This document shows positions 12,144-59,314 of a DNA stretch of 64,000 nt, in pieces. Source of the stretch: a virus; IMG/VR virus record IMGVR_UViG_3300008108_000034, positions 15,320 to 79,319 of that record, one strand, 5' to 3'. The notes under the pieces were generated by a model. It was not told the origin of the DNA, ran no database searches, and worked only from the letters and a program-made list of their open reading frames with translations. A program made the position numbers and the translations under genes. Numbering within the stretch: position 1 is the stretch's first letter; each line of letters starts with the position of its first letter.

Positions 12144-12145
12144 GA

Positions 12146-12298: not shown

Positions 12299-12304
12299 TG
12301 TTTT

Positions 12305-12910: not shown

Positions 12911-12912
12911 TG

Positions 12913-13101: not shown

Positions 13102-13102
13102 G

Positions 13103-13303: not shown

Positions 13304-13330
13304 GTTGGTTGGTTTTGGGTGTAAATATAA

Positions 13331-13851: not shown

Positions 13852-13988
13852 TTCTTTTTTGAAGCTGCCTTGATCTTACGCTCCTGCTTGAGCATCTGTT
13901 TAGTGGGTTTCTTACCTGAACCTTTGTTGGCGCGGATGTTGTCCCACAATCCTCGTTGGGAGTAGGATCCATCAGCACGCTTGATCAT
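13848..13988 (-). CDS. small basic protein (46 aa); not in ORF track
   Basis: Hand-translated MIKRADGSYSQRGLWDNIRANKGSGKKPTKQMLKQERKIKAASKKK; ATGA overlap with the next gene. Confidence 0.75.
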   Translation of the reverse strand: MIKRADGSYSQRGLWDNIRANKGSGKKPTKQMLKQERKIKAASKKK

Positions 13989-13999
13989 TTGTTTCTTTT

Positions 14000-39232: not shown

Positions 39233-39240
39233 ATTGAAAC

Positions 39241-42075
39241 TTATTGCCAGTACCTGAGTCTATTGTCTGTCCAAGGTATGTAATTTCCGTTTCCTGTGGA
39301 AGCTGCGGTTGCATTGTTTGTAACCTTGTTGTTACCGTTGGTTGTTGTGGACATCTCCTGCTGAAGCGACAAACCTTCTATGTATTCACGCACTTTTCTG
39401 TCGTTTTCAGCACCATAGACCTGATCACTCAGATCAGATGCACTAACGCCTGTGGATGTCGTAATATCAATAGTCTGTGAACCAGTGTTCCTCAAATCAA
39501 AAGTGGCATACAATCTACCATCCGCACCAGAGTTCAATGTTCCTCCATTGAGATTTCCATAAAGCGTTTTTGGAAAACTAGCTGATCCGTTCTGAGATAC
39601 TCCACTAACCCAACTGCGTGCAGCAGGATATATGTCCGCACCAACAAGATCACGAAGCTTTTCAGCAAGAGGGTTCTTTATTTCAACAAGCTGTCCTTTG
39701 GAATTCCTATACGATTGCGGAGGTCCTACAATTTCCATTGCATTTGACCTGTCCAGGTAGAACTCCATGTAGTTCTTACCGCTCTCTGACAAGATTTTGC
39801 TTGTCTCCATGCCAAACACTTCACTTGCTCTCTTGGCTGTACCTTCACTCTTTACAAGATTAATAGGTATCCTTACTGCAATACGCGTTTGTCCATTGAC
39901 GGTTTTCAACGAAATCTTCATCTGGTCAGGATCAAAAACCTCTGAATAGTTCTTACCACCGACCATCTTGTCTCTGAAGGCTGCCAGTTCTTCTGTAGTC
40001 ATCTTATTATCACCAACGCTTCCATCAGGTGCCACTCCAGCTTCTTGTGCAAGGTTAATTACACGCTCCATGATTCCGTAATCAAAGTTTTTCTTCTTGT
40101 CATCGGCAACCCTGAAATCAATGGTTGACGCCTTCCTTTGAAGTTGTTCCTGCCATTTTGGAGCGTTTGGAATCATTTGTGCGTAAATCGCATCACCTTG
40201 ATCCTTGGGAAGACGGCTGATTGCTTGTGTGTTTATGAACAATTGTCCAGTGGTTGGATTTGCCAATATGTAAGGTCTGTATGTGGGATCATCCCTGAAA
40301 TCGTTCAATCGTTTTTGTTCCTGCGCAACCATGTCAGTATACGCCTGTCTGTTGTTTTGCGATTGGTTTATCGACTCCACAACCTTATGTCCCATATTCC
40401 TATAATATTGCGCATTTACTTTGGCGTTCTGAGCTATGTGTGTGGATATGGTGTTCCAACTCACCCTTTTCAATTCATTCACTGTATTGAAATATGTGGG
40501 ACCAACTTTTTTCAAATACGCTAAAAGCTGTTGTCCCTCACCGTCGGTAAGAGGCTGTCCATTTGCTTTTTTGTTCAATGCATTTGAAACTGTTGCAAGT
40601 TGATAACCGTTTCCTTCACTCAGAACCCTTCCGTCTCCTTGGGTAGCATGTCTTGCAGCAACAGCAAGATTGGTTAAATTTGTAAACGCCGTCAAACCTT
40701 TATCACGATAGTTTGCTTTTGACTGTGTGTAGTATCCTTGAAGATTGAACTTACCGATATCCTCGGGATTTCCTGTGGAAATCTGTCCGTCAGGAATCTC
40801 ACCTTTCTTTACCGCAAGTTCAACATCGCGATCGTATTTCAGATCAGCCATCTCTCTTTCAAACTCCTGTTCAGCACGCATCTTTGCCATTTGGAAGCGT
40901 TGACTGTCCTCTTGGAGTTTCACCTGATCTGCTTCAACCTTTGTGATTTCCTTGGATGCCCAGTTTATCGCAAACCGTTGAGCGTATTCGTTCTTGATGG
41001 AACTGAAATACATCTGCCCTGGATTCTCTGCAAACAGTTTTTGTGTATTGTCCTGAAGATCCTGGTCTGAAACCTTACCCATTTTCATCTTGTCAAGCTG
41101 GGAGGTAAGATTTTGTTTACGCTCCTGCAATGCATTGAGATACTCAAGACGTGTAGCATCAACACCTTTGGGGTATTCCCTTTTCAACTTGTCAACCTCA
41201 CGATCCACCTCATCGATGTTCTCCTTGAGGTCGTACATGTCGTCATTGTAATCCTTCACATAGGATTGAGCCATCTCAGTTGAAAGTTGCGAAATCGCCG
41301 CTTGTTCTGTAAGATTGGGATCAGCCTGCATCATTGACTTGACCTGCCTGTCCGCTCTTACAACCGCTTCAATACCAAACTGTTTGTCAAACTGCGTTCC
41401 TGTGGCATTCTTAAACCATTGGTTGAAGGTGCTTATGTTTTCCTTGGTCCTTCCGTTTGTACGGGTGACCATATACATTCCTTCAGAAGTTGGTTTGGTT
41501 ATTTCAAGTCCCTGGTCTTTTGCAAGATCATGTGCGTACTTGTATACATCCTCCCATGGCGCCCACATGTGTACTTGAGCTTTGTCAATCGATCCATCAC
41601 CTCTTTTGGTTTTGGAAAGACGCTCTTGTCCTATGGAAAGATACTCATCCATCACGGGATTCCATGTTGCACGGACATCCTTGTCCATGCTGTTTCTTGT
41701 GGAATTGCCTTTTGCAACCTGTGAATCCTGCAAGGATGTCTTGTAAAGATCGCTGTTGTATTCCTTGTCATTCACCAACGGATCGAATATCGACATCGCC
41801 TGTTGCATGTTGGCGGGATTGGTGAGATCCACCATTGCAACCTGTTTAAGATAAGCATCCGCCTTCTTCATGTAGTCCGCTCTGAACTGGACATTGTCAG
41901 CAGAGGAAAGCCGTTTGTTGAGAAGGGAGCTGTATGCGGATTTGAACTGATCGACTTTTGTGTCATATCTGGTCTGCATCGCATCGAGACCTTTTGAAAG
42001 AAACTCAAAGTCTATTATTTGCGGTACCATTCCTGGAACACCGCTACCGTCCACACCTTTTATAAATGTTGCCAT
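39241..42075 (-). CDS. putative virion cargo protein
   Basis: 944-aa helical/coiled-coil protein in the cargo gene block. Confidence 0.65.
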   Translation of the reverse strand: MATFIKGVDGSGVPGMVPQIIDFEFLSKGLDAMQTRYDTKVDQFKSAYSSLLNKRLSSADNVQFRADYMKKADAYLKQVAMVDLTNPANMQQAMSIFDPLVNDKEYNSDLYKTSLQDSQVAKGNSTRNSMDKDVRATWNPVMDEYLSIGQERLSKTKRGDGSIDKAQVHMWAPWEDVYKYAHDLAKDQGLEITKPTSEGMYMVTRTNGRTKENISTFNQWFKNATGTQFDKQFGIEAVVRADRQVKSMMQADPNLTEQAAISQLSTEMAQSYVKDYNDDMYDLKENIDEVDREVDKLKREYPKGVDATRLEYLNALQERKQNLTSQLDKMKMGKVSDQDLQDNTQKLFAENPGQMYFSSIKNEYAQRFAINWASKEITKVEADQVKLQEDSQRFQMAKMRAEQEFEREMADLKYDRDVELAVKKGEIPDGQISTGNPEDIGKFNLQGYYTQSKANYRDKGLTAFTNLTNLAVAARHATQGDGRVLSEGNGYQLATVSNALNKKANGQPLTDGEGQQLLAYLKKVGPTYFNTVNELKRVSWNTISTHIAQNAKVNAQYYRNMGHKVVESINQSQNNRQAYTDMVAQEQKRLNDFRDDPTYRPYILANPTTGQLFINTQAISRLPKDQGDAIYAQMIPNAPKWQEQLQRKASTIDFRVADDKKKNFDYGIMERVINLAQEAGVAPDGSVGDNKMTTEELAAFRDKMVGGKNYSEVFDPDQMKISLKTVNGQTRIAVRIPINLVKSEGTAKRASEVFGMETSKILSESGKNYMEFYLDRSNAMEIVGPPQSYRNSKGQLVEIKNPLAEKLRDLVGADIYPAARSWVSGVSQNGSASFPKTLYGNLNGGTLNSGADGRLYATFDLRNTGSQTIDITTSTGVSASDLSDQVYGAENDRKVREYIEGLSLQQEMSTTTNGNNKVTNNATAASTGNGNYIPWTDNRLRYWQ

Positions 42076-42089: not shown

Positions 42090-45000
42090 CTATGAAAGAA
42101 TTCCTGGAAATCGATAAGGAATGTAATTAGGTTGATGTTTCTGTTGCCTTTCTATCTCAATGAGTTTTATCAAATCAGCATCCGGAATTCCCTTACCTCT
42201 ATATTTATCATACAGATCAAAAGAATTTGATGATCCAGTACCTGTGAATGATCCAGGTACAAACATACCACCGTATCCAGGAATGTATTTGAAGTTTTCT
42301 TCCCTCATGTTTGTAGAAGTAAGATTCGTTGCGTTGGTATCACCCTGCATAAATGCTTTTCTTGCTTCCCTATCCATCGCAAGTTGTTCATTTGCATACT
42401 GCTGCTCGTTGGTTGCAACACCTGCAATGTAATCCTTTTTGTTCTGAGCATTATAGATCTGCTCCTTCATGCCTATTTCGGTGTTTACCTTTCCAGCCTC
42501 ATTGATTATTCCAGTGTTTCTTGCCTCATTCTGCGCCATTATATCCGCTGTCTTGTCTCCCATCTGACCTGCTACTCCTGATTGCATCGCTCTAAGGACT
42601 GCGGGATTTGCAGTTACACCTGTCATTTCACTCATGGCAGTTGCTCCTGCACCTTGTACACCTGCAACTTGTCTTGCAATGGCTTCAAGATTATATGGAA
42701 CACGTCCGAAGTTGGCGTTTATGTCAGCAGGACCTTTTGACTTGTAAGGTCTGTCACCAAGTGCACCGTAAAAATTGTACAGATCACCTTGCATCCACAA
42801 TGCAGGAATGTTCATTGGAGGTTGCCAATTGGGTTTACGAGTATCACAAAGGGGTTGAGCACCAGTGACAGGATCACAAGGAACTTCTTTCATTGTGTTA
42901 CCTGTGGGATCAACAGTGTAATCAGGACACTGGCATTTTTTTACTGGAGGATTAGTAGGAGGATTAGTAGGAGGATTAGTAGGAGGAGAAGTGGGTACGT
43001 CTTCTAGATTGATGAACTTCTGAGTACCTGCAATCTCCTTACCATAGTTCCATGCTCCTTCCTTACTTGCATCAACAAGTTCTGGCATGTCCTTGATTTC
43101 ATCCGCGGTAAACCCTTTATTTAGAAGATAATCAGTGTTGATTTTTCTGACTTGTTGATTCACCCATTGATTTGCAGCCTGATGTTTTTTAAGTTTATCG
43201 CTTGGATTTGTTTTTGCAGAACGAATATCCTCCTTGTACTGTCTCATACCTTCAGCTTCATTTCCACCAGCGGTTCCATATTGACCAAAATTAACACCAT
43301 TGGCTTTAAGATATTCAATCTGACTGTCTACACCTTTCCAACCACTTCCTGGGGAGTAGATATCACCTAGTCCTGTTACCCTACCACTTGCATCCTTTAT
43401 TTCAGGAACAAGCGTACCTTCTGAACCCCATGTGTATCCTGTAGATGCTGTTTGATGTCCCACACCTGATTCTTTAGCAGCATATGGTGCTCTTATCAGA
43501 TTGAGTTTATATTGTGGCTTTTGTGCAATTAGATTATTAATCCATTGTGCATACGCATCATCTGCAATATCGTATTCAGGTCCATTTTGATATTTCGGCA
43601 AATCTTTTTCACCTCCGTCTGCATATGAATCCTCAGCTTCAACCATGGTGTTTTCTATGGGATCATATATGAAAATAGAACCTCCTCTTTTCTTCTTAGG
43701 TGCAACATAGGTTGCAGGACTTCTCCTTAGTTCTTGCATTATGCTGTCTATTTCTGCCTGGTCAATATAACCTTTGGCCATAATTGATTGTCTCAATTCA
43801 TCATCACTTACCCTTGCAGGTGCATTGTTCACTGGAGGATTTGTAACAGGTGCTGTGGTCAAAGGAGCAGTCACAGGAACAGAGTCGGCAGTAGTAAGGG
43901 TAGCCGGAACAGGATATAAAGACGAATCAGGTGATACAAATTGACCATTTCCTAATGAATCAAGAGAAACAAGACCTGTTGTATCTTGTTGCACCACAGC
44001 ATCATCTTGAAGTCCGCCTCTATATAATCCTGTTTCAGGATTGGCAAGTCTGTGACCAAGGTAACCAAGTCCACCAAGTCCTACTGCTCCTGCTCCTGAC
44101 CAACCTAAGTAAGGAACACTTTCTTTAAGTATTTTTTTTGCAGCAGATTCAGATGGTAATGAAATGTTTAATCCAGGAAGTCTTCCTGCAGTATTGCGCC
44201 ATGCGTATCCTAAAGGTGATCTTATCTTTGTTTCTGGAAATTGCAATGCAAGTTCCTCAACCGGTATATCTTCAGCAGTAGTTAAAAGATTTCCTATGCT
44301 TCTATTATATGAGTTTGGACCAAACTGATCCGCGGCATCAACCGCTTTTCTCACATTTTCAAAAGCAGATTGTTGCGCTGGAGTAAGTGCATATTGAGGA
44401 TGATTTAGTTTTATAAGATCCATTACATCAATGTCTTGCAGTCTATTATTAAACCCACTCCAGAATGGATCATTGAATATTTCTCGTACAGTTTCAATGT
44501 CTTTAGTCAATTGTTCTTTTCCACCAACACTTTCAAACGCACGATTGGGTTTTTTAACAAGAGAAGGAGTACCTTCTCCAGTTACAAAACCTCTAGTACT
44601 TGGATGTCTTTTTCCTCCAAAAGTCTTACCTTCAAACCTATACTTTACTTTTGAAAGATCTCCTGGAAGAGATTCTGCTACATTAAGAGTTCTTCCAGCT
44701 TCATCCGCAATGTCTCCATACATCACATATGCGCTTTTAGGATTAGCGGTTGTAAAATATCTTGGAATACGATTTGTGAAAAGTGCCATCGTACCTAATC
44801 CTACTCCCGCACCTGCTCCTGCGAATTCACCAGGTGTTGTAAGTGGAAATCCACTCATCATGTAACCTAATTCAGGATTGGCTCTCAATGCTTGAGTCGC
44901 TCTTCCAAGACCAGCAGCACCTTCTCCGATTCTACTACCGAGATTTAAAGCTTGAGCACTTTTACTTAATCCTGGAAGTAATCCAAGAGTCGGATCCATC

Positions 45001-46313
45001 ATGATATCACCCATCACACCTTGTCCTGAAGGACGTCCCCTCAATGCATCGGAAAATCCGTATTCACCTGTACCTGACAGTTGATCAGCTCCTGCCTGCA
45101 TAAGTCTTGATGGGATTGCAAAAGGAGCAAGTGTACTCAAAGGTGTGTTGTACATTTCAGCTTCTTCAGGACTAAGACCAGGTGCAACCTGATCACCAGG
45201 TATCATGCTGTATAAACCTTGGATACCTTGACTACCTAAACCAGGTTCAGTTAAGAAACCATATTGACTGTTGCGTAACATCTCAAACTGCTCAGGACCA
45301 AGCTCTTGCATTGCTTTAAGTCTGTTGCCACGCAACATTGTCTTAAGGTCAGGATTTGCTTGAAACAGTTTGTTAAAGTAATTGGTGTTTACAGCTCGCT
45401 GCCATTTTTCAGCCATTCCTGGATTAGCAAGAATATCTCTTTTGGAATATCCTTGCAATAGGTTTGCACCTGGTTGGTTCGCAAGCCACTCATTAAAGTC
45501 AAGAAGATTTGAAGGTGTGCTTGCAGTAACGTCAACCTCTGGAAGATTTACGTATGGCAGTACCCCACTTGGATTTTTCTCAAAATTTGGAACAGCTCTG
45601 GTTACAACAGGATTATATTCTTGTGGTCCTACAGGTCCAAAGTCTTGATGGATTGGTAAAACTTTTCCTCCACGACGCATGATCTGTCCACCGAACTTGG
45701 CTTGAGGAGGTCCTTGTTGAGCAGGACTCTGTACAGCAATGTCTTTATTGAACAGAGGTTGTGATATGAATGGAACACCATCAGGGAATCCTTTCATACC
45801 TTCCTGTACCAATGCAAGCTGACCCAGTTTGGTCATGTTATTGTCAATCATGTACTGGGCGGTCTTCTTGTCGAGGTAGTCAGAATTAGGATCATTCAAT
45901 ATCTCAAAGTACCTGTTCAGGTCGTACCGCTTGGCGACCATTGCAGGAGTCACCGATTTGTTGGTATTGTATCCAAAGACACCCTTCAAAAGCTCTTTGT
46001 TCTTGATATTCAATGCTCTAGTGTCTGAAAACACAAAGCTTCCGTCAGGAACATTCAGAGGAGTACCGCCTTCACTGTGTCGTTTTCCACCGACAATAGT
46101 GTGCATGATGTTTCCATCCTTGTCTGGCCATACTACGGTCTCGTTCTTTTCAGCTTCAATGGTCGCCTCATCCCTGGGTATTGGACTCAGTGTATCCTTT
46201 ACCTGATTGGTGGTAGCTTTATCCTCGTAATTCCAAATACTTCCGGTTACAAGTCCGTAGTTGCGCTGGTCACCCATGCTACCACCCCTGACTCGGTTTA
46301 TCTTTACTTTCAT
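42090..46313 (-). CDS. modular putative virion cargo protein with GG/LxKxQ linkers
   Basis: 1407 aa. N-terminal EAEKNET...GGKRHSEGG...FVFSD domain; linkers AKFGG, MRRGGKVLPIHQ, KKKRGG, YADGG..LPKYQ. Confidence 0.7.
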   Translation of the reverse strand: MKVKINRVRGGSMGDQRNYGLVTGSIWNYEDKATTNQVKDTLSPIPRDEATIEAEKNETVVWPDKDGNIMHTIVGGKRHSEGGTPLNVPDGSFVFSDTRALNIKNKELLKGVFGYNTNKSVTPAMVAKRYDLNRYFEILNDPNSDYLDKKTAQYMIDNNMTKLGQLALVQEGMKGFPDGVPFISQPLFNKDIAVQSPAQQGPPQAKFGGQIMRRGGKVLPIHQDFGPVGPQEYNPVVTRAVPNFEKNPSGVLPYVNLPEVDVTASTPSNLLDFNEWLANQPGANLLQGYSKRDILANPGMAEKWQRAVNTNYFNKLFQANPDLKTMLRGNRLKAMQELGPEQFEMLRNSQYGFLTEPGLGSQGIQGLYSMIPGDQVAPGLSPEEAEMYNTPLSTLAPFAIPSRLMQAGADQLSGTGEYGFSDALRGRPSGQGVMGDIMMDPTLGLLPGLSKSAQALNLGSRIGEGAAGLGRATQALRANPELGYMMSGFPLTTPGEFAGAGAGVGLGTMALFTNRIPRYFTTANPKSAYVMYGDIADEAGRTLNVAESLPGDLSKVKYRFEGKTFGGKRHPSTRGFVTGEGTPSLVKKPNRAFESVGGKEQLTKDIETVREIFNDPFWSGFNNRLQDIDVMDLIKLNHPQYALTPAQQSAFENVRKAVDAADQFGPNSYNRSIGNLLTTAEDIPVEELALQFPETKIRSPLGYAWRNTAGRLPGLNISLPSESAAKKILKESVPYLGWSGAGAVGLGGLGYLGHRLANPETGLYRGGLQDDAVVQQDTTGLVSLDSLGNGQFVSPDSSLYPVPATLTTADSVPVTAPLTTAPVTNPPVNNAPARVSDDELRQSIMAKGYIDQAEIDSIMQELRRSPATYVAPKKKRGGSIFIYDPIENTMVEAEDSYADGGEKDLPKYQNGPEYDIADDAYAQWINNLIAQKPQYKLNLIRAPYAAKESGVGHQTASTGYTWGSEGTLVPEIKDASGRVTGLGDIYSPGSGWKGVDSQIEYLKANGVNFGQYGTAGGNEAEGMRQYKEDIRSAKTNPSDKLKKHQAANQWVNQQVRKINTDYLLNKGFTADEIKDMPELVDASKEGAWNYGKEIAGTQKFINLEDVPTSPPTNPPTNPPTNPPVKKCQCPDYTVDPTGNTMKEVPCDPVTGAQPLCDTRKPNWQPPMNIPALWMQGDLYNFYGALGDRPYKSKGPADINANFGRVPYNLEAIARQVAGVQGAGATAMSEMTGVTANPAVLRAMQSGVAGQMGDKTADIMAQNEARNTGIINEAGKVNTEIGMKEQIYNAQNKKDYIAGVATNEQQYANEQLAMDREARKAFMQGDTNATNLTSTNMREENFKYIPGYGGMFVPGSFTGTGSSNSFDLYDKYRGKGIPDADLIKLIEIERQQKHQPNYIPYRFPGILS
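42946..42986. repeat. 12-bp tandem repeat (about 3.4 copies) encoding a PPTN linker
   Basis: GGAGGATTAGTA x3 plus GGAGG. Confidence 0.9.
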
Positions 46314-46354
46314 GCTTTTTGGAAATTTATTTGTTGCTGAACCTCACTTACTTA

Positions 46355-46368
46355 AATATACTAATTTT
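46355..46368 (-). promoter_or_regulatory. putative phage late-promoter motif AAAATTAGTATATT
   Basis: Intergenic upstream of the 1407-aa gene; identical 14-mer at 60454-60467. Confidence 0.55.
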
Positions 46369-46379
46369 CCGTGAAGATA

Positions 46380-49300
46380 TCAAATTAACTCCACGTCCCA
46401 ACCTGCTTTGATAAGTTCACGTACAGTGTCGATATCAAGATCGTACTCACCACCAGATTCAAACATGGTACCTCCGATTCTTGCGTTTATAGGTTGCAAA
46501 GGACTATTGGGATTCATCCAACTCTTAGGCATTGTACCTTCTTGTAAGGATGTACTTTGCATACTCAATCCTGGTTTCTGCACCTGAGCAAACATGTTGG
46601 GTTGATTCAAGTTACCCTGTGTCGGATTGAGAAGAGCCTTACCCATCATTTGACTCGTATTCTGTTGAGGCTGAGCTATGTTCAATGTGTTGAATGCAGA
46701 AAGCTTTTCATCTTTTCTCTGTTGTTTTCCAGCATTTATGTCTTGTAAAAAATTACCCATTGCACTTAGTGAATACATAGCCTGTTGTGCACCTACATGA
46801 TTGTAACCTAATGAATCAGGACACGAACCATCACCATCACAAGAAGGACATGTACCATCACTACAGGGTTTCATGTTCTTTGTTACATTTCCATCTTTGT
46901 CTTTACACTCGCAAGCTGCATCAGGGTTACTTGGATTAGAAGCATCATTACCTCCAACACCACCGTCAGTTTGAAAACTAGGAAGACTAGGCATTCCACC
47001 ATTAGCCATGATCATTGATGGAATTCTTCCAACATTCGTAGCAAACTTTCCAATTTCTTTTGCACCCCCTGTGATACCTTGTACGGTTTGCTGTCCAACA
47101 TTGAAAGCATGATAAGGCATTGTCAAAGCGTTCAAAAGCGGATTCTTTTTAATGTGTCCTGCTACACCTGCGGCAACCTGTTGATTTTTTGCAAGATTTG
47201 CATACTTGGCATAATCAAAGTTGGTATAAGGTGATGTGGTTTGTTTGTTATCGCTACCAGATGTTCCTGCACCAGATGTTCCAGATTGTGTTCCTGTAGT
47301 AGTTGTAGTAGTAGTAGGTGTTCCAGATTGCGTTGAGGTAGTGGGTCCTGTACCAGTTGTTCCAGTGTTTGTAGCTGTAGATTGAGTTGATGTAGTTCCA
47401 GTGTTTGCAGTTGTAGATTGATTTGTTAAATCTATTACTGTAAGATTAGGCGGAGGAGTTACACCATAATACTTACCAGTATTTTGATATTTATCCCAAG
47501 ATTGTCCATATTCTTTCCAAAGAGTAGCTGCATCATTTTGACCTGGTCTTGTATATAGGTAACCAGGATAATTACCTGTTTGATCTGCATAATTATTTTT
47601 TGTCCATGTTGTAAATGCAGTTTCTTCAGGACTACCTGATGCAAATGGATAATCAATAATCTTATCTGATACTCCAGGCTGTGAGTTCTTGTCTTGAAAC
47701 TTCATCAAGCCTCCGTTCTTCATCAAGTAATCCTTGAACTCCATGCCACTCAATGAACCCCCTCTTTTCTTCTTGGGGTTGATATTCAGACCACCTCTCT
47801 TCATCACATTGTAAATCATTGAAGGATCAAACTGACCTCCGAACTGATCACCGCCTTCCTTGAACATGAAGTTAGGTCTGGTCTCTCCCTTACGATCATA
47901 AGGTAGGTACGTCTGAGCTTGTGGGAACGCCTCTCCTCCTGATGCATACTGGGTACCGCTGTAACCCGCCCATGTCAATGGATATGTGTTTGCCTGAGGA
48001 AAAGCTTCACCACCATCGCGTTGTTGTTGAGCTGCTTTGATTTCAACTGGATCAATGTTCATAGGAACATAATCCACAAGCTGGTCACCATAATATTTTA
48101 CTCCCTGTACGTACTTGTTTACACCTTCTCCAAGTATTGATCCTTTTTTCTCACGACTTGATTTGTCACTTCTAGCCAACCAACCTTGTTGGTTTATCAA
48201 ATATGGTAGAAAGTCAAGATAATTCTCTCGTGTAAGATTCTCCTTGTTACCTGATTTCGCACGGTTTCTCAACTGACTAACGTTCTCCGCAAGAAACCTC
48301 ATTGCAATATCAGATGATTTTACAGGATCGTATATGGAATCAAGCACATCTCGTTCATCTGATGGATATAGTTTCCTTGTTTTATCAGATAGACTTCCAT
48401 AGTTCGTCTGAAAAGGTCCGAGACTTTTATTCCAAACCCAGGACTTAGGCATGATATACGAAAACAATTTGTTTTCAGGAAGCTTTAGTCCTGACTGATA
48501 ATCAGTGCCTCCTTGCGATTCCATCATATACTGACCCATCATTGTCTTGATCATGGCATTATACTCATCATTGCTGATGTTATAATCCTTCATTATCATC
48601 TTCTTGTACTCAGGGTCATTTACCTGGTTTAATATTTCAGGTATTCTACTCTCAGATAAATTTATATTCTCATCACCTTCTGCATTTACAACATATGGAC
48701 CTTGATCAGATGTTGAATATTTGGATATGAATGCACCTGGTGTGTAATCAGTGTCAAATCTAGTTGGGACAGGAATATCAAAATACTTAGGATTAGACTC
48801 TAGTATTTTGTCTTTAGTGGATTGTCTTTTAGAAATTAATTCATTAAGTTCTGGATTAGACCACACATCTTGACCTTTATAATACATCAACGCAGGTCTT
48901 GACTGACCCTTTAATCTTCCAGATACTTGTGCAATATCATCAGTGTCTGGTCTATATAGGTTCCCTTCTTTGTCTATATCATATTCTTTAAGAATCTGCG
49001 GTCCTGATCCTGGATTTTGAACAGTATATACTCTTTTCCTACCATTTTCCAATTCTTTTACATCATACACATAATAATTATGAGCTGATTGATAAGATGG
49101 AACAGATCTGTATTTTAACTCTTTTGTGACAGGATCGGTATATTCACTTCTTAAGACTTGATTCTGTATTAAGGATCCTGGAGATAATTTGGAATAAATA
49201 TCTTCAGAGGTTATACCAAAAGCAGGATTGGAAAGAACCATGTCCCTAAAGTTATCACCGCCAGTTGTTGGACGTATCCCTGACTCAGGATATGTCTCAT

Positions 49301-50177
49301 ACATGGCAACACTACCAGCTGTTGTACAATAAGGACCTTTACAAGATTGATCTAAGTTATATCTGCGATTTCCAAGAAAATCCCCGACACTAGTAGACAT
49401 CAAATAATCTTTTACTTGAACAGGAGTCTTGCCAGTATTTTGTGTTGTATTACCTTTTGCTAATATAGCATTGATGGCTTCATTTAAACTTTCATATTCC
49501 TTAACCAATTCAGGAGGAGCTTCTTCAGGACCAATTTGACTTGCTTGTAAACCTTGATACTTCTTAAGTCCACCGTTTTTGTAAAACCAGTTCAGGTTTT
49601 GCGCCTGTGGGAACTGTTCCTGACAGTCTATACATCCTCCATCCTTGGCGACCTGCATGCTTGTATCGGTCATTCCCATGGAAGGAGTCATCATGCTTTG
49701 CAATTCCTGTTGACGCAGCTTTGCCTTGATTGAGGTATATGCCTGCATCTGCTCCTTGTTATCCAAGGCGGAGAACTGTTCCACGACCTTGTCATAATCC
49801 AGGTTGTTCAATTTCGCCCATGTCGCAAGAGTGGTCTGCACATCAGATGCGGACTCCGAACCTGAAACACCGGAGTTCATCGCGGTATCATTCATACCGT
49901 AACCACCATACCGTGCGTGCTTATATTGTTGATATTTGTCTCCCTTGACATATGTCATCAATCCAGGAAACAGGTTTTGTCCTTCCTGGTTAGTAACAAT
50001 CTGGTTCTTGAATTCCGTACCCATTGCCGGATTAGGTGGAGTCATAGGCATTTCCAACACTCCGTTTCCAAGTGTCGAATAATCCATTCCCGGAAACATG
50101 TAGAACGCCCCATTGGGGGTAAGTCCTATCATCTTGTCCTTCTGGTTCTTGGTTGTCAGTTTTGTTGTTGCTGCCAT
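46380..50177 (-). CDS. modular putative virion cargo protein with NlpC/CHAP-like and SLT/lysozyme-like domains
   Basis: 1265 aa with more than 10 xxGG motifs. C(TTAG)...PGS...H(NYYV) papain-like pattern; MESQGG...SLGPFQ...YDP..S..IA..FL lytic-transglycosylase-like pattern. Confidence 0.65.
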   Translation of the reverse strand: MAATTKLTTKNQKDKMIGLTPNGAFYMFPGMDYSTLGNGVLEMPMTPPNPAMGTEFKNQIVTNQEGQNLFPGLMTYVKGDKYQQYKHARYGGYGMNDTAMNSGVSGSESASDVQTTLATWAKLNNLDYDKVVEQFSALDNKEQMQAYTSIKAKLRQQELQSMMTPSMGMTDTSMQVAKDGGCIDCQEQFPQAQNLNWFYKNGGLKKYQGLQASQIGPEEAPPELVKEYESLNEAINAILAKGNTTQNTGKTPVQVKDYLMSTSVGDFLGNRRYNLDQSCKGPYCTTAGSVAMYETYPESGIRPTTGGDNFRDMVLSNPAFGITSEDIYSKLSPGSLIQNQVLRSEYTDPVTKELKYRSVPSYQSAHNYYVYDVKELENGRKRVYTVQNPGSGPQILKEYDIDKEGNLYRPDTDDIAQVSGRLKGQSRPALMYYKGQDVWSNPELNELISKRQSTKDKILESNPKYFDIPVPTRFDTDYTPGAFISKYSTSDQGPYVVNAEGDENINLSESRIPEILNQVNDPEYKKMIMKDYNISNDEYNAMIKTMMGQYMMESQGGTDYQSGLKLPENKLFSYIMPKSWVWNKSLGPFQTNYGSLSDKTRKLYPSDERDVLDSIYDPVKSSDIAMRFLAENVSQLRNRAKSGNKENLTRENYLDFLPYLINQQGWLARSDKSSREKKGSILGEGVNKYVQGVKYYGDQLVDYVPMNIDPVEIKAAQQQRDGGEAFPQANTYPLTWAGYSGTQYASGGEAFPQAQTYLPYDRKGETRPNFMFKEGGDQFGGQFDPSMIYNVMKRGGLNINPKKKRGGSLSGMEFKDYLMKNGGLMKFQDKNSQPGVSDKIIDYPFASGSPEETAFTTWTKNNYADQTGNYPGYLYTRPGQNDAATLWKEYGQSWDKYQNTGKYYGVTPPPNLTVIDLTNQSTTANTGTTSTQSTATNTGTTGTGPTTSTQSGTPTTTTTTTGTQSGTSGAGTSGSDNKQTTSPYTNFDYAKYANLAKNQQVAAGVAGHIKKNPLLNALTMPYHAFNVGQQTVQGITGGAKEIGKFATNVGRIPSMIMANGGMPSLPSFQTDGGVGGNDASNPSNPDAACECKDKDGNVTKNMKPCSDGTCPSCDGDGSCPDSLGYNHVGAQQAMYSLSAMGNFLQDINAGKQQRKDEKLSAFNTLNIAQPQQNTSQMMGKALLNPTQGNLNQPNMFAQVQKPGLSMQSTSLQEGTMPKSWMNPNSPLQPINARIGGTMFESGGEYDLDIDTVRELIKAGWDVELI

Positions 50178-50178
50178 G

Positions 50179-52746
50179 TCATTGTCTTTTATGTAATCTC
50201 ACTTTTAATTTTCCGTTCTTGAATTGCGCTCCACCGTTTTGCTTGAAGGTGTTTATGTTTTTCATTGTAGCCACTCGTTGTGAATACAAGTCATCCAATG
50301 ACGAATTGAAGGGTCTCCACAGTGGATCATTCATTATTGAATTTACCAAAAGAAGTCTATTTTGAGGTGAAGTAGGATCGATTGTTGCAGATCTACTATT
50401 CCTCATTTGATCCATCATCAAATCATAAATGACATTTGCATCCTTTGGAGGAGTCGCTGTTTTTTGATTAGCCATCATGCGTAAATCCGCTTCCTTATTT
50501 GCCAGGTCATACCGCATTTGCCTGTTCAGTCTTCCAAACTGATCTTTGAATCTATCCAATAGTATATCACGTATTCTACGTTTTGCTTCAAGTTCAGGAG
50601 TAGTGTTTGATAATTCTTTGAATATTTTTGACTTCGCCCATTCTGCGGATTTGGATACTTCAGGAGAAAGATCAATCAATCCAAATCTTTTTGTTCCAAG
50701 GTTGTACATAAGATTGTCACCTTGAAAATCAATACCTATGTCATTCCTTCTTAAGAAATCAACTTGATCACGAAGCTCAGAATAAGCTTCAAGTGGAATA
50801 TCGCTCATCTGTTGTCCTGTGAGTTTTCGCGCTGAAACTCCAGGAATACGACTCATGACTTCATAATCCAAAGCAGTGGTTGGTTCAAATTCAGGATGAG
50901 AGTGACCCAACACATCTTTTGCGGATTTATAATACCTAGGGTATATCTGGTTTGGATATTGAGGTATATCTTCAAAACGAGCAGTTGTAGCAAATGTTCC
51001 TCGCGCCTTTTCCGAAGGTGATACCTTAAGTACCAACTCTGGAAACTTTCTTAAACTATAAGCTTGTCCGTAACCGCCTCCTCCTATTCTGTCTGGATTA
51101 TACTTTTGGAAATTAGTCAAGTTTATATTACTCACCACACGATTCCTCAACGCCTCTTCACTCATCAGTTTTCTTGCAATATCGGACTGTAGAACCCGTG
51201 GCATGACTTGATTAGAAAAACCAGAAACAATCGATGGAACAAATGGAAGAGCTGAAAGTCCAGCGGTAAGTCCTGCGGTACCATAGTCACCCTGAGCAAG
51301 TTGTGTACCTGCTAATCCAAGTCCATATGCTGATCCCCATGCGGGTGGAAGCATCGCCATTCCTATGCTACCAGGTGCGTACATCAAAGGATTCTGATAA
51401 GCTTCAGTTGTACTGGTTTCCACGAGTTTCTTCCTGAACTCAGGATTTTGCATGTTCCTATTGAATGATTCCTGCGCACCAGAAGGACCTGTTTGATTCG
51501 CCATCCTTCTGACATCCTGAGGTACAGACACAGGTGAATCAAGCTTTACAAGTTCTCCAGTCTGAGGATTGAACCCATGTGTACCAGCATATACGAACTT
51601 CCTGATGATGTCATTGTATTGAGGATTGTCACTGTATACCGCGCGATTGTCAAAGTATTCAGGTGCATTTGCATATGTAAGAACACCTGATAATCCTGTT
51701 TGTGCCTTAGGAAGCGAACCACCCATCAGCTTCTTATTTTTTTTCTGCCAATCTTCTAACGCTGCTTTAGTTTCTGGTCCATATATTGCATCAAACGTTG
51801 TAAAATCCGATCCCCACACACTAGGTTTTGTTGACTTGGGAAGTTTATATCCTTGTTCAGCTAAAGCATTTTGAATAGTTCGCACCAATATTCTTTGAAC
51901 TTCTGAATTTTGAAGTTCTGGAGAATATGTAAGTCCTAGCAAATAGTTAGCGTCATTTAAAACATCACTACTTGACATACTATCCCTGACAGATTTTGCA
52001 TAGTTTTCATAGTCTTCATATGTCCTACCAGTAGTTTCTAGTGTAGGATATTTTTTCTCTATTTGTCTTACTGCGCCATTAGGGGTTCGTATAATTTTGT
52101 CCCTTGGAATACCAAATGCATCGCAAACATTATCCGCACAATTATTGGTAAGCAGATTAAAGTCTACAGGACGGGTATCAGTTTCTCCAATACGCCAATC
52201 AAATATTCCAAGCGGTAGATTGGATACTTTATTAAAAAACACACCAGGATCATACCCATAAACATTATATGTCTTATCTCCTGCTTTTACATCAACTGAA
52301 CCACTACTTAAAACGTCATTTCCTGCAGAAGACCAATCTATAGAAAGACCACTAGGAGACGTTGTAGCCATCACATGACCTGGAGGATATCTTTTAAAAG
52401 GAGGATACAAACTGATTTGAGCAGGATGATTAATATCCATAGGATGTATCTTTTGCCCATTTACACCATATGCACCTACTTCCTGTCTAGGTGTTCCCGC
52501 ATACTCAAGGTTCTTCCTACCTGGATTAGGACCTTTGTTCCACATGATTTCCTTTAATCCTTGTTTCTTCGCAGCGGCATACGCTTCATCCCATGTATCA
52601 TACTTATCTGTAAAATCTGGGACTCCCCAATTATAAGGATTAGCATATGAAGCTTTTAAACTACTTATGATACTACCAACAGGACCCACAGTTTGGTGTT
52701 TGACAAGACTGCGCGTTGTTTTGCTACGTAGTTTTCTCTTGCTCAT
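50179..52746 (-). CDS. modular protein: permuted papain-like peptidase + peptidoglycan-binding domain + Ser/Thr-kinase-like domain
   Basis: GHV...FNLLTNNCAD; IQNAL...GY...DAIYGPETKAAL..WQ; IGGGGYGQAY...VLKV...DFQGDNLM...LIDL. Confidence 0.75.
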   Translation of the reverse strand: MSKRKLRSKTTRSLVKHQTVGPVGSIISSLKASYANPYNWGVPDFTDKYDTWDEAYAAAKKQGLKEIMWNKGPNPGRKNLEYAGTPRQEVGAYGVNGQKIHPMDINHPAQISLYPPFKRYPPGHVMATTSPSGLSIDWSSAGNDVLSSGSVDVKAGDKTYNVYGYDPGVFFNKVSNLPLGIFDWRIGETDTRPVDFNLLTNNCADNVCDAFGIPRDKIIRTPNGAVRQIEKKYPTLETTGRTYEDYENYAKSVRDSMSSSDVLNDANYLLGLTYSPELQNSEVQRILVRTIQNALAEQGYKLPKSTKPSVWGSDFTTFDAIYGPETKAALEDWQKKNKKLMGGSLPKAQTGLSGVLTYANAPEYFDNRAVYSDNPQYNDIIRKFVYAGTHGFNPQTGELVKLDSPVSVPQDVRRMANQTGPSGAQESFNRNMQNPEFRKKLVETSTTEAYQNPLMYAPGSIGMAMLPPAWGSAYGLGLAGTQLAQGDYGTAGLTAGLSALPFVPSIVSGFSNQVMPRVLQSDIARKLMSEEALRNRVVSNINLTNFQKYNPDRIGGGGYGQAYSLRKFPELVLKVSPSEKARGTFATTARFEDIPQYPNQIYPRYYKSAKDVLGHSHPEFEPTTALDYEVMSRIPGVSARKLTGQQMSDIPLEAYSELRDQVDFLRRNDIGIDFQGDNLMYNLGTKRFGLIDLSPEVSKSAEWAKSKIFKELSNTTPELEAKRRIRDILLDRFKDQFGRLNRQMRYDLANKEADLRMMANQKTATPPKDANVIYDLMMDQMRNSRSATIDPTSPQNRLLLVNSIMNDPLWRPFNSSLDDLYSQRVATMKNINTFKQNGGAQFKNGKLKVRLHKRQ

Positions 52747-55700
52747 CGTGGACTTGTCGTTTCTTTTACGGCAGATACCTTCAGGTTGTATTTCAGGTTA
52801 TCAGATACAGTTTTGCCTAAAATTAACCTATTTCCGTAATGTCTGAATTTTTTTCTTTGAAGCGGTGACTTGTTGTAGTCTATGTATGTGGGATTCAATA
52901 TCTTACGATATCCATTCTGTTCGGTGTTGAACATGCGGTACTCGATTCCTGAGAACTCACCCCTGTCCTTGGTTGCATCCCAGAACTGGTTGAAGCGGTA
53001 CTTGTTCTCCTCCTTGGCAAACATGATCTCAATCCCCAGTGGCGTCACCTTTGGATAGTTAAGCATCTCCACAGGACTGAAAGGTTTCAGATTGAGTTTC
53101 AAAAGACCTGAGTTCTGTTCCGTATTGTATATCATGGCATAGTCGAAGTTCGCATTCAATACGTGGTACGGATCGATGCAATCCTGTGAGTAGTTGAGAA
53201 CCTCTAGATAGTATTCCACGCTTTTGATGGTCGTTATACCGATACCTGTATTGACTGGCACCTCCACCTCAAAAGGATGGTTCACACCATAATAGTTACA
53301 GAAGCTGTTACATACATTGTTGTGTTTCCAGAATCCTTTGTCCTGTACGGAATAGAAGTGATCATTGGTACCCAAGACATGATTAGGATGCCAGTCGTGG
53401 AAGCTGATCCACATCTTTGTCTTGGGATCATAACTGACAGTCCATGAACAATCCTCAAAATACTCAGGATCACCAAGTTCTATCCTAAGTTCTCCAGCTT
53501 GCTTGTTTACATAGAAGTAATCAAGATCCTTGTTGTACTTAACCGTGCTTGATTTCACCTTGAAGTCACGCTTTGTAAAATATACAATCTCGTATTGGGT
53601 GTCATAAACGGCAAGACAACCTATTCCAAGAACTGTGTTTTCAGTGTGTGGGAATTCAGGAAACTGGGTGGTGAGTACATTTGGAAGATGTTCAGCAAAC
53701 CAATATCGCATGCCATTCATTGCAATGTCGACAATGGTGCCGCCAGAGTATTGTAAAACCTTTCCGCTGTTGCGACTCAACCAGAATGTTCCATAGGGGG
53801 TGTTCACCACCGACCTTGTATCTTGACAAGATGCATATTCATATTCGTCATCCGCATTTACCAATGACTGGAAAGGTTGATTAAACAAACCACCATCACC
53901 TATCGTGATCTTGGTGCCAGCGGATGTCTGAAGTTGGTCCACACCTGTGAAACTTGTAGGTTCCCCATCCTCGAACAGGATCAAACCACCAGTTCTGTTT
54001 ATAGGCTTAAACGCAGAAACAGTGTGTTCAAACTCCTTATAGTTGTTTGGAAGGTATATTCTCCATGAATCCCTTGATTGTTCAGATATCTGAGGAAGAC
54101 TATAATAAACCTTGTTCTGGTAATAGGTGTAGCATGTTTCAGCCACATTCGGATCATATGTCCTTGGAAGGATGAATCCAAATGATTTGTAGTTGCTTAA
54201 AAGTCTTGACACTGAAAGCGAATAGTCATACCTGTAATAGTTTCCGCTCTTGATGATATCGCTGCGGAACATCGCACTGGTGTCAGTGTAATCCGTATAA
54301 TCATAATGTCTTTGACTGTTCAAATCACCATAATCACGGAATGCAAGATTCACTTCAGACTCCACAAAGAAGTCACGGATTCCATTATAGAATAAGTAGA
54401 ACCATGCGCTTGTGATTTGGAAACTGTTTGTAGAACCCACTTTCCTGTCAAGATGGTGATACGAACTGGCGGCATTTATCCAGTCAGTGAATGATCCTCC
54501 AGTCAACGCATTCCAACTAAGTGGAGTCTTGATGTCTGAAGCATCTATCTCATCAAAGTTCGCCCAGTATCTTGGATACAGGATGTTGGCATATTGCTTG
54601 TAATCAAACTGTGTTCCATCTGGAGAATCAAACAACCAGTTGTTGTAGAAGAAGAAAGGATTCTTTTCAGTGTATCTGTTGATGTATATGTCGCCACCAA
54701 ACATGGTACCTGAGTTATAAGTCTTGTCCTTTATCTTGGGACTAGTGACCAGGTAACATGTGTTTACCGGCACTTGAACAATGCTTTCAAGCTGACCGTA
54801 TTGGTTCTCCAGATCTATCTTCAATCCTGCATAGTAAGCTGAAGTGGTTGAGGTTATGTTTTTGTTCACAGGATCATTGAAGCTAATTGTCGAACTCTCA
54901 TCCCGCACCCTTTTTCTTGTCTTATCCTCTATGCTTGAATCGCCAAGTGACACTTCAGGAAATGTTCCGAATATCTTCAAGGCAACATAATCATTCCTGT
55001 AATAGTTGTTTATGATAAAGTTGCTGTCAAAACTCTGAACCTGTCCGCGTATGTAGACACTCTTATCATGTTTCCTTCGTATGAAACCTAGATTGCTTGA
55101 TGGACAGACCGTCTTGTACTTGGAATAAAAACCGTGTGAGTTGAACTGCAGAGCGTATTGCTTGTAGGGAATCAAAGCGTATATGATCCTCAAAGCTTCA
55201 GCTGTTCCCTTACCTGCATAGTAATCTATGGTAGCAAACAAAAGAGCATACATTGCAACATCTGCAATAACCTGACCGACTTTTGTCTGATATCCAGGTA
55301 TGAGTGTTCTGAAATCCAAACCACTAAGCTCACCTCCCGCATTTGTTATCTGTGGAAATTGAAATCCTAAAGTACTACCTCCAAAAATTCCACTTGACAA
55401 ACCAAACAATGCTCCTCCAGACACACCATTGGTTATTCCCAAAGGCATGTTTCCAAGACCTGCAAGCAATCCTGCTGCAGCATTTGGATTGATTGGAGGA
55501 AGACCAGGTCCAAACACGGTTGCGGCTGCAGTTGCAGATATCGCCTGTGTGACATCATCAGCCGCCTTAGTGATTGTACCGCGTCCACCCAATGCGTTTC
55601 TCACGGCAATCGCAGTACCTACTGTCAATGCGATCAGATACGAAGCATTGGTGATGAGCTTGTGTTTTGGATGACCATATGGATATTCAAACTTTCCAGT

Positions 55701-57590: not shown

Positions 57591-58643
57591 TCAGTAATGA
57601 AACGGATATGAAGGATAAGGACCGCGTGCGGTCTTGAGTCCACCATACCACGCATAGCTGTTGAACATGTTGTAATACTTGGCATACATCGCCTTGCGGT
57701 TCTTCTCCCACATGCGTTTCATCTCACCATAGTCCGGAGTGTTGATGAAGCTCAATGCATTGGTTCTTGCAATCATCATCTTGGATTGTATGAGTTGCAG
57801 TTTCTGTGCGGCAAGAGGTTCACCGTTCATGAAAAGGTTTTCAAGGATACGTTCCTTCAAGGCGTATTCGTAATACTCATTCACCAGGGGATGATCAAGG
57901 ACAAGCAGGTTGCCTTCGTCATCCTCCATCAGTGATTCATAGTTTATGTAAACACGACCTTCCTTGAAGTTGATGGTGTGGATGAAACCATCCTTGATCT
58001 TCATACGGTAATTGTATGAACCCACGTTTGCAAGGTTGCATTCTGGTTCCCCGTAGTTGTACGGTATGATTTCGATTGGAACCGGTCTTGGAAACTCTCT
58101 TATGAGTCCGGGTCTATTTTCAACAATTTTGCAACCATCAGGGCAATTATCAAGACTGATGCTGCAGTTAGCAACAACATTTGCCGCGGCAATGATAGTA
58201 ATCCGTGCAGCATTCCAGACTTCGAATACTTTGACTTTGACTTGGTTTTCATTGAGGATGACATATTCAAAGTTAACATAATCTTTCTCAGAGTTCTGAA
58301 CCTTGAGAACAACATTTGTGGAACCCAGATTATGGGTAACTATGTTCCATCCCAGACCAAGATCAGCAACCTGAATCAATGGACGCGTTTCATTTGCAAC
58401 ACCACAAAGCATTCCAAAGTTCATTACATAAAAGTCCGCGGGAAGTTTGCCTTTTCCATTGTGAACCTCTATGATCTTTCCCCTACTGGGATTGATTTTG
58501 AGTCCAAGTTCGTAATTGACCTTGATTGCGATTTTGAGCAGTTCCTGCGGATTGAGGAAGTTATCCTGGTCAAATGTGTACAGATCACTCCGTACTGAGT
58601 TCATCAGGTCATCAAATGTCCTGTATTGGAGTTCTGTCTTCAT
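57591..58643 (-). CDS. tail ring/tubular (adaptor) protein
   Basis: 350 aa. KLP.DF, Y.IKDGFI..NF.EG.VYINY...D.EG.L.V.D pattern; tail-module position. Confidence 0.65.
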   Translation of the reverse strand: MKTELQYRTFDDLMNSVRSDLYTFDQDNFLNPQELLKIAIKVNYELGLKINPSRGKIIEVHNGKGKLPADFYVMNFGMLCGVANETRPLIQVADLGLGWNIVTHNLGSTNVVLKVQNSEKDYVNFEYVILNENQVKVKVFEVWNAARITIIAAANVVANCSISLDNCPDGCKIVENRPGLIREFPRPVPIEIIPYNYGEPECNLANVGSYNYRMKIKDGFIHTINFKEGRVYINYESLMEDDEGNLLVLDHPLVNEYYEYALKERILENLFMNGEPLAAQKLQLIQSKMMIARTNALSFINTPDYGEMKRMWEKNRKAMYAKYYNMFNSYAWYGGLKTARGPYPSYPFHY

Positions 58644-59314
58644 TTGGTGTTGCTTACAAAGTCTTGTTTGACATCACCTGGTATGCTGATACTTGTAGCC
58701 AGGTCTTTCATTACATTCTGCTCCATCTCCCCATACAGGTACATGGGAACAGAGAAAGGTTCATCCTGTATGTAAATGCAATCGTGTTCCGTATCGCAGT
58801 TGTAATTACCTATGCCTGATCTGAACAAACCTTCAACTCTAATCGCAGGCCAATCCACACTGGGAACATAGATGTAATCATTCACTATGTAATAGTAGGG
58901 AGTCTTGTTGTACTTGAAAGTCTTCTGACGTACCATCGCTTGATAAGTGGACGGATACGTCATGGTCAATGGAGTTGTGCCATCGATGCTGGTTATGGAC
59001 CTGATGATTGGACCATAGCTTCCATCGTATGTTGGAGGAATCTTGTATTGACTGCGCTTTATGGTACAACCAGAGGTTATGCAGAAACATCCAACATCCG
59101 CCTTGTCCACATCAATCATTGGAAAGTAATCCAATGTATGGAAGATATTGTTGTACTTACGTAGGATTCCCTTATCGTCTTCACGTTTAATAAGCCATGA
59201 TATGTGTTTGAGAATCAAGGAATAAATATAACGATCGGTGACAAATGCATCCACTGTCACCGATTTGATTTGATTCCTTATCCTACTTATGGCTTCCGAT
59301 ACCTTTGTTACCAT
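58640..59314 (-). CDS. tail ring/tubular protein
   Basis: 224 aa. IKRS..KIP, YYIVNDYIYV..., F.VP...E pattern; tail-module position. Confidence 0.6.
   Translation of the reverse strand: MVTKVSEAISRIRNQIKSVTVDAFVTDRYIYSLILKHISWLIKREDDKGILRKYNNIFHTLDYFPMIDVDKADVGCFCITSGCTIKRSQYKIPPTYDGSYGPIIRSITSIDGTTPLTMTYPSTYQAMVRQKTFKYNKTPYYYIVNDYIYVPSVDWPAIRVEGLFRSGIGNYNCDTEHDCIYIQDEPFSVPMYLYGEMEQNVMKDLATSISIPGDVKQDFVSNTK

Follow-up and report, generated by a model that had tools for sequence, protein, structure and literature searches.

In a stretch of 64,000 nucleotides (nt) of a virus (IMG/VR record IMGVR_UViG_3300008108_000034, positions 15,320 to 79,319; hereafter the window), three adjacent genes at 42090-52746 encode large proteins, P1, P2, and P3, which share a short recurring peptide composed of GG and LxKxQ. 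The source contig of 79,319 bp belongs to an uncultured crAss-like phage from freshwater; at least 15 studies, dated 2019 to 2025, contain near-identical sequence in their freshwater and lake metagenomes. All genes and protein features described here are located on the minus strand. On this strand the order of genes is ring protein R2 (58640-59314, Pfam CrAss_Ring_2), ring protein R1 (57591-58643, Pfam CrAss_Ring_1), the muzzle protein (52743-57584, Pfam crAss_MUZ, E = 2.5e-25), P1 (855 amino acids (aa), 50179-52746, overlapping the muzzle gene by 4 nt), P2 (1265 aa, 46380-50177), P3 (1407 aa, 42090-46313) and three large genes (944 aa, 1656 aa, and the 3860-aa virion RNA polymerase, vRNAP; together 22679-42075), none of which contains the motif. 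Comparison with related loci showed that these probable cargo proteins are mosaics whose exchange junctions coincide with the conserved peptide. Their conserved parts are called scaffolds and their exchangeable parts cassettes below.

An earlier note on this DNA had listed seven linker peptides, the xGG peptides that close the payloads and a duplicated GGEAFPQAxTY, and each of these lies where that note had placed it. The composite pattern GG.{0,6}L.[KIS].Q occurred six times in P1-P3 against 0.16 expected, a count reached in 0 of 5000 shuffles, and L.K.Q occurred eight times against 0.93 expected. GG alone was not enriched in P1-P3 (36 against 31, P 0.20); its count fits composition, which ruled it out as a signal by itself. 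Among approximately 56,000 three-residue patterns, L.K.Q was the top one not of low complexity, a rank that, taken from the window alone, is not significant after Bonferroni correction. The enrichment is decisive because the motif is absent elsewhere in the contig, because of its count in 189 homologues and because of its confinement in 80 related loci. The composite motif was found in none of the other 40 genes and in no frame elsewhere in the 79-kb contig. In the 189 homologues, the strict form GG.{0,6}L.K.Q was counted 137 times where 2.9 +/- 2.0 were expected; five control patterns stayed flat in these proteins. Across 80 related loci of IMG/VR, the run of genes that starts with the muzzle gene and ends with the gene of the candidate anchor domain (P3 in the window) held 84 strict motifs against approximately 3.6 expected (approximately 20-fold), and the two downstream large genes held 1 against approximately 1.9 expected.

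The consensus, derived from 459 non-redundant instances of a relaxed pattern, is [M/Y/A][K/R][Y/K]-GG-(0-2, up to 6)-L-P-K-[A/Y/H]-Q-x-G. In a shorter form, the motif reads [M/Y/A][K/R]x-GG-(0-6 aa)-L-[P/V]-K-[A/Y/H]-Q-x-G, so that zero to six residues separate GG from LxKxQ. In AlphaFold2 (AF2) models, the motif regions have a predicted local distance difference test score (pLDDT) of <50 and lie beside well-folded modules. Because the seven copies are encoded by differing Gly, Leu, Lys, and Gln codons, the motif appears to be kept by selection on the protein and not as a DNA repeat, which also counts against the suggestion that it is a DNA recombination site. A text search of the literature for the peptide strings returned no relevant paper, and none of the papers searched describes the junction peptide.

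The homologues found matched parts of P1, P2, and P3 only and not the whole proteins. Residues 21-345 of P1 recur in 44 proteins and residues 345-855 in approximately 8, and residues 720-830 of P2 recur in 17 proteins. The muzzle, 944-aa and 1656-aa genes of six relatives are full-length collinear matches with 30-80% identity, and the counterparts of P1-P3 in the same six relatives are rearranged and mosaic. Of 452 internal ends of BLAST alignments (alignment ends, not independent events), 222 fell within 20 aa of a strict motif, a zone that makes up 7-12% of the length. Three cases of insertion or deletion were informative. The first is P0023, which is 95% identical to the C-module of P1 and has the same MSKRKL start as P1; it carries LLRKAQ at the place of the LVKHQ of P1 and then directly the sequence found behind LPKAQ in P1. 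The cassette of approximately 330 residues between them (cassette A) is therefore an insertion or deletion with LxKxQ at both ends. In the second case, P0005, P0007, and gene 2 of locus L003 run from …FYK directly into xxGGEA without cassette C, which in P2 is framed by NGG-LKKYQ before it and QRDGG after it. In the third, cassette C is 88% identical in P0004, where another N-terminus precedes it and the C-module of P1 follows it, and where it is likewise framed by GG…LKKYQ and QRDGG. These comparisons bore out the view that the genes have a modular build in which the motif brackets unrelated payloads. The alignment of orthologues, which the earlier note had set as a test of its own proposal, did not refute it: homology breaks at the motifs and the flanks are collinear.

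Domains recognised in the homologues included SLT, ADPrib_exo_Tox (ADP-ribosyltransferase), Glucosaminidase, YkuD, and small basic DUF domains. A mini-module of approximately 15 residues, LT[DE]KQK[ER]YFGW, was seen after GG at the end of proteins and between cassettes (P0004, P0006, P0024, and gene -2 of L003). In four freshwater sequencing runs the same phage was present in fragments, and no contig skipping a cassette was found. Metagenome scans with P0004 and P0023 and scans of viral contigs with P0002 and P0004 detected no relative; in a phage collection there was no match to the DNA or to P2 and one weak match to the N-domain of P3.

The earlier note had described the payloads as AT-richer than the scaffold on the basis of hand counts of 15, 18, 32, and 31 G+C in 60 nt, all of which were exact on recount. 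The GC content at third codon positions (GC3) confirmed and sharpened this difference, with 0.18-0.33 in the cassettes against 0.45-0.55 in the scaffolds and neighbouring genes. The parts with native values were the N-scaffold of P2 (0.55), the motif array of P2 (0.505) and the N-domain of P3 (0.48), and the neighbouring genes had 0.43-0.47; the parts with acquired values were cassette A (0.22), cassette C (0.26), residues 829-1059 of P2 (0.18) and the middle of P3 (0.22). Maximum-likelihood change points of GC3 were placed at motifs at residue 201 of P2 (motif 202-208) and residue 833 of P2 (motif 822-828), and away from motifs at residue 517 of P2 and residue 170 of P3. These values support a foreign codon composition of the payloads, as judged from the sequence. 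Two genes outside P1-P3, at 14000-15538 and 60549-61661, also had low GC3 (0.275 and 0.29, respectively, against a window mean of 0.42), and these may be recent acquisitions too.

P1 starts with a leader of 18 residues (52693-52746) that ends in LVKHQ. It is followed by cassette A (residues 19-341, 51724-52692), predicted to comprise a permuted NlpC/P60-papain-like peptidase and a PG_binding_1 domain. Alignment of its AF2 model (pLDDT 81) by VIA-align revealed TseH (Z 8.6), YiiX (7.7), and RID of MARTX (7.6), with further fold matches to 3kw0 (6.6), Aichi 2A (5.6), and DeSI (4.9), and Foldseek ranked the type VI secretion system effector TseH first. His124 precedes Cys203, and both are nearly invariant in 44 homologues; the predicted fold together with this conserved His-before-Cys order assigns residues ~100-240 to the permuted NlpC/P60-papain clan. 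The PG_binding_1 domain scored 24.1 bits against the Pfam cutoff of 23, and NCBIfam gave for cassette A only a sub-threshold peptidoglycan-hydrolase match. As modelled, cassette A fits a cell-wall peptidase and not a maturation protease. The N-module of P1 is absent from P0023 and, within the 20-kb loci compared, from L003, L005, L009, L010, and L011, all of which keep motif-bearing cargo; its nature as an optional cassette argues against the papain-like module as the protease of the motif. In these loci the module thus does not accompany motif-bearing substrates, as a GG-specific processing protease (of the double-glycine leader/C39 or DUB-like kind) would. The junction motif KKLMGG-S-LPKAQ-TG (residues 338-351, 51694-51735) leads into cassette B (residues 350-834, 50245-51699), which contains a predicted hydrophobic hairpin and a protein-kinase-like module. 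The hairpin (residues ~455-510) is G/A-rich and moderately hydrophobic according to its hydropathy. For the kinase-like module (residues ~531-830), all structure matches in the Atlas were Pkinase (TM 0.44-0.50) and NleH1 was matched at E 0.47; no Pfam match was obtained. Its G-loop, Lys, DxxxxN, and the Asp of IDL are invariant in 5 homologues, and the GG in which it ends is invariant in all homologues. P1 itself ends in …LHKRQ.

P2 begins with an N-scaffold (residues 1-201, 49575-50177) that is conserved in relatives, followed by the junction motif YKNGG-LKKYQ-G (residues 199-209, 49551-49583), at which the GC3 change point of residue 201 lies, and by cassette C (residues 209-719, 48021-49553). 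One half of this cassette is CHAP/NlpC-like, with a CHAP-like Cys…His, and the other is SLT-like, its Glu and GPFQ being invariant in 26 homologues. The nearest neighbours by language-model features in the Atlas were SLT, CHAP, and Lysozyme_like (0.88-0.90), which is a lead only. No Pfam or PDB sequence match was found for cassette C, nor was any found by Pfam on 8 remote homologues or by a PDB profile search. Cassette C is a probable CHAP/SLT cell-wall hydrolase pair, on the strength of these leads. Next comes the motif array (residues 720-829, 47691-48020), which carries GGEAFPQA twice and further xGG and ends in NGG-LMKFQ. This array has native GC3 and tandem copies with no domains between them, and no other part of P2 is as conserved. 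A further junction motif, MANGG-MPS-LPSFQ-TDG, is located at residues 1057-1072 (46962-47009). The C-terminal end tag (residues 1235-1265, 46383-46475) has the form GGEY…acidic helix…VELI and was matched by a hidden Markov model (HMM) of the C-termini of 56 relatives with 15.6 bits (E 1.5e-5). Internal motifs scored <0 with this HMM, which matched only the C-terminus of P2, and they were thus rejected as homologues of the end tag. In most relatives, the gene before the anchor gene ends with GG, an acidic helix and a GG-x-VEF[IL] tag. The gene after the end tag (loci L003-L082) opens with a basic strand of alternating pattern, MK[IV][RK][IV], and LPKAQ frequently comes next. These ends and starts are complementary in charge, which suggests that successive cargo proteins might pair head to tail.

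The N-domain of P3 (residues 1-195, 45729-46313) recurs in 120 proteins and in 158 IMG/VR loci and is a candidate portal-binding anchor. A resemblance of its GGxxH…VFSD to the portal-bound domain of gp45 of crAss001 had been noticed before the structure search. With the AF2 model of the domain (pLDDT 68), the best match among 48,161 PDB chains, a weak one, was 7qog_M, residues 430-546 of crAss001 gp45, whose portal-wing-binding domain comprises residues 425-552; Foldseek found nothing for this domain. The junction motif MRRGG-KV-LPIHQ-DFGPVG (residues 212-229, 45627-45680, pLDDT <50) is followed by a variable middle part (residues 224-880, 43674-45644) that has G/A-rich hydrophobic segments and almost no homologues. 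A second junction motif, YADGG-EKD-LPKYQ-NG (residues 897-911, 43581-43625), precedes the C-domain (residues 1161-1407, 42093-42833), which is present in approximately 65 relatives and has no motif at its start. Cys-rich mini-domains of ~30 residues were seen before the conserved C-terminal parts of both P2 (residues 1088-1120, 46818-46916) and P3 (residues 1127-1157, 42843-42935).

The genes that follow the muzzle gene in crAss001 encode the cargo proteins gp45 and gp46, which are present in virions and thought to be ejected before the DNA, and gp45 was modelled as one chain spanning capsid and tail (PMC10172136). The statement in the earlier note that crAss-like phages package cargo encoded near the vRNAP is correct, as crAss001 illustrates. 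P1-P3 are placed as the cargo of crAss001 is, directly downstream of the ring and muzzle genes and upstream of the giants associated with the RNA polymerase. In the window, the 3860-aa vRNAP is a single open reading frame (ORF; 22679-34261) in which a gp47-like zincin region is joined to a gp50-like RNA polymerase, as marked by HEAFH at residue 1106, DFDID at residue 2715 and BLAST similarity to gp50 and gp47 of crAss001; no Pfam family matched it. Both systems have their cargo genes (C1, gp45, and C2, gp46, in crAss001; PDB 7QOG) between the muzzle gene and these giants, and both have a Gly-rich hydrophobic segment. Moreover, gp45 has aromatic-x-GG peptides at residues 209, 427, and 562, which bracket the two parts of the protein that were resolved, one on the tail barrel and one on the portal. 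However, crAss001 has two such genes instead of three, the anchor domain of gp45 is central and not N-terminal, gp45 lacks the LxKxQ half as well as recognisable enzyme cassettes, and the crAss001 paper mentions neither a junction motif nor module swapping (PMC10172136). No sequence similarity between P1-P3 and gp45 was detected by BLAST, hhalign, or Pfam. Pfam gave no match at E <= 0.01 for P1-P3 and none at E <= 1 for their segments, except PG_binding_1 and chance matches, and PHROGs gave no match for P1-P3. P1-P3 are probably carried in the particle and injected.

On balance, we lean towards the reading that P1-P3 are ejected cargo proteins built as mosaics of scaffolds and cassettes, which are joined at an uncut tag made of a hinge and a strand. 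P1-P3 would be the positional counterparts of gp45 and gp46. The scaffolds (N-domain of P3, N-scaffold of P2, motif array, and C-terminal tags) would be native and would keep the proteins anchored inside the particle; the cassettes would have been acquired horizontally from relatives of lower GC3 and would ride along with the scaffolds. Most cassettes would help to breach the cell wall at ejection, with a few acting on the host instead. In a disordered linker, the motif would form a five-residue strand between glycines, so that the modules stay separate enough to unfold one after another as they pass the tail, and it may dock on the portal or the tail lumen, as the weak match of the P3 N-domain to the portal-bound domain of gp45 would favour. 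Because every cassette carries the motif, recombinants that join there would be functional, and surviving exchange junctions would therefore accumulate at the motif. The 'effector arsenal' of the earlier note is overstated for this genome, since two of the three recognisable payloads look like the cell-wall enzymes usual on ejection proteins. Only the kinase-like module, together with the ADP-ribosyltransferases in relatives, looks like a host-takeover effector.

Several observations weigh against this reading. Distant relatives carry a looser YGG…[YA]Q-x-GG in place of the strict motif. Boundaries without a motif exist at the start of the C-domain of P3 and at the GC3 steps of residue 517 in P2 and residue 170 in P3. 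The breakpoints counted above are not independent events, and linkers are natural ends of alignments. The CHAP/SLT and kinase-like identities come from leads and have no Pfam or PDB sequence match. The match of the P3 N-domain to 7qog_M is weak (Z 4.9, root mean square deviation 4.9, 98 of 126 residues aligned, 21% identity), and as a sequence homologue of gp45 this domain was rejected (BLAST and hhalign not significant). Finally, several cargo proteins carry the motif behind an N-terminal leader of 15-30 aa, like a removable propeptide.

The last point leads to the best-surviving alternative, namely that the proteins are polyproteins, in which a phage or host protease cuts the motif after GG, before L or after Q and frees the cassettes in the particle or after ejection. 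The motif stands behind such short leaders in P1, P0023, P0038, L008, L009, and L068, P0032 ends exactly at the Gln of the motif, and P1 has …LHKRQ at its end. The [K/R]xGG half resembles the cleavage sites of ubiquitin-like proteins and double-glycine leaders, and a zincin HEAFH is present in the adjacent vRNAP polyprotein. Processing has been proposed for the RNA polymerase polyproteins of crAss-like phages and for polyvalent proteins (bioRxiv 10.1101/2020.03.07.982082; PMC5512222). However, cutting the tandem array would yield only peptides of 20-30 aa, yet this array is the best-conserved part of P2; the variable spacer, the absence of the motif from the vRNAP and from the other two large cargo genes, and the C-terminal position of just one of 368 motifs also speak against cleavage, and the sole protease-like fold in P1-P3 is an optional cassette fused to a peptidoglycan-binding domain. 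We prefer an uncut tag to cleavage because of the conserved native motif array, the varying spacer, the GG brackets of crAss001 gp45 and the giants without a motif, and regard processing as rather unlikely.

A role of the motif at the level of DNA, as microhomology directing exchange like the VENN-coding region of CdiA and with no role of the peptide, is highly improbable. The coincidence of exchange junctions with the motif would agree with it, and so would motif-coding patches shared with other organisms: in the freshwater runs, contigs of other organisms matched only 30-55-nt patches at 49490-49569 and 47896-47949, both coding for junction motifs, and diverged on both sides (one matching contig was of high depth in X18). 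Yet the codons of the seven copies differ, and the identity of ~80% over 14-18 codons is explained by amino-acid conservation alone; conservation of the peptide may be the cause of these shared patches. Moreover, the motif is kept even between relatives whose anchor domains share only 45% identity, and the GC3 step of P3 falls within the conserved domain, 45 residues before the motif. Equally improbable is a capsid-loading signal by which each motif gets its cassette packaged, like the capsid targeting sequence of T4: although the motif is restricted to cargo genes adjoining the muzzle gene and forms with an N-terminal leader exist, the cassettes are covalently joined to conserved anchor modules and need no tag each, and other packaged proteins (the vRNAP block) have no motif.

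Ejected mosaic cargo joined at an uncut tag, as favoured here, has parts in common with several described systems. Polyvalent proteins (Iyer et al., 2017, PMC5512222) likewise have several unrelated enzymatic domains per polypeptide, lie in the context of virion genes, are predicted to be packaged and injected, and repeatedly contain ADP-ribosyltransferase, peptidase and lysozyme-type domains. P1 carries at least two unrelated domains, the NlpC/P60-like peptidase with PG_binding_1 and the kinase-like module. In contrast, the cassettes described here are placed between conserved virion-anchoring scaffolds, and the polyvalent paper deals neither with crAss-like phages nor with a motif at linkers or junctions (the words 'linker' and 'crAss' occur 0 times in it). 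That paper proposed processing by embedded metallopeptidases (PMC5512222), whereas P1-P3 contain no embedded metallopeptidase or zincin, HEAFH being confined to the 3860-aa vRNAP encoded nearby. The ejection proteins of T7- and P22-like podoviruses are also internal virion proteins with peptidoglycan hydrolase domains, and in related phages the hydrolase domain is found on differing ejection proteins, a 'mosaically modular organization' (Swanson, Hou, Cingolani 2022, PMC8954989). They differ in that no junction peptide is described, that they have one enzymatic domain and not several slots, and that they belong to unrelated families.

A third comparison concerns polymorphic toxins, in which short demarcation motifs such as VENN of CdiA and DPxGL of Rhs stand at the border of constant and variable parts. 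Like these and the MuF toxins of temperate phages, in which MuF binds the portal (PMC5576092), the cargo proteins combine a constant delivery or anchor domain with exchangeable enzymatic modules and a border motif, and the layout of a constant trafficking domain, variable modules and a demarcation motif was found in P1-P3. They differ from polymorphic toxins in that variable modules occur not only at the C-terminus but also at the N-terminus and internally, that most payloads are cell-wall enzymes, and that the motif is not conserved as DNA. No immunity gene follows a variable module, and there is no small ORF between P1-P3 (52743 and 52746 overlap, 50177 and 50179 abut, and a 66-nt gap precedes P3). 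Polyvalent packaged proteins, mosaic ejection proteins, portal-associated MuF toxins and the cargo of crAss001 are thus already published, and a junction peptide appears in none of these papers. What this genome contributes are the two-part GG/LxKxQ form, the 95%-identical pair with and without a cassette, the GC3 dichotomy and, as a tentative element drawn from a weak match of a model, the structural link between the anchor and gp45.

Directly downstream of the cargo and vRNAP block, ten tiny genes (50-94 aa) are located at 11979-14009, nine of them very basic (22% Lys) and most with a KKK tail. The earlier note had seen the same grammar in them, which the counts did not support: GG was counted 8 times against 5.4 expected (P 0.15) and L.K.Q once against 0.23 (P 0.2), and the composite motif was absent. 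The tiny gene at 13331-13612 belongs to Pfam DUF6321 (E 2e-21), a domain that is fused to the C-terminus of the cargo homologue P0053, and DUF5872 and DUF5754 are found inside P0035 and P0056. The only link drawn between the tiny genes and the cargo is the shared family DUF6321, free-standing here and fused in a relative; the tiny basic genes may encode further packaged proteins. After the vRNAP gene lies a gene for a 2271-aa protein (15842-22657) with a match to PD-(D/E)XK nucleases at residues 477-598 (E 8.5e-5) and weak similarity to gp47 and gp49 of crAss001. Within the tail module, a Phage_lysozyme gene (59317-59856, E 2.8e-44) adjoins ring protein 2.

Crassvirales are among the most abundant phages known. 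Within a virion module that is otherwise collinear, the cargo genes described here are the part that evolves fast and is exchanged horizontally, and their payloads appear to include cell-wall enzymes, a kinase-like module and, in relatives, ADP-ribosyltransferases, with one short peptide at the seams. This motif offers a mutable target for the question of how proteins sit in and leave the crassvirus particle as well as a simple rule for spotting injected payloads in metagenomes. A bolder proposal, which we put forward tentatively and consider doubtful, is that GG…LxKxQ serves crAss-like cargo in general as a plug-in code: whatever domain it flanks would be carried and threaded via the tail, with the strand docking on the portal or tail lumen or with the vRNAP zincin cutting it on arrival. 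If this were true, these abundant phages would swap, in cassette form, the enzymes and host-modifying effectors that they inject, and foreign proteins could be loaded into such particles by means of the tag.

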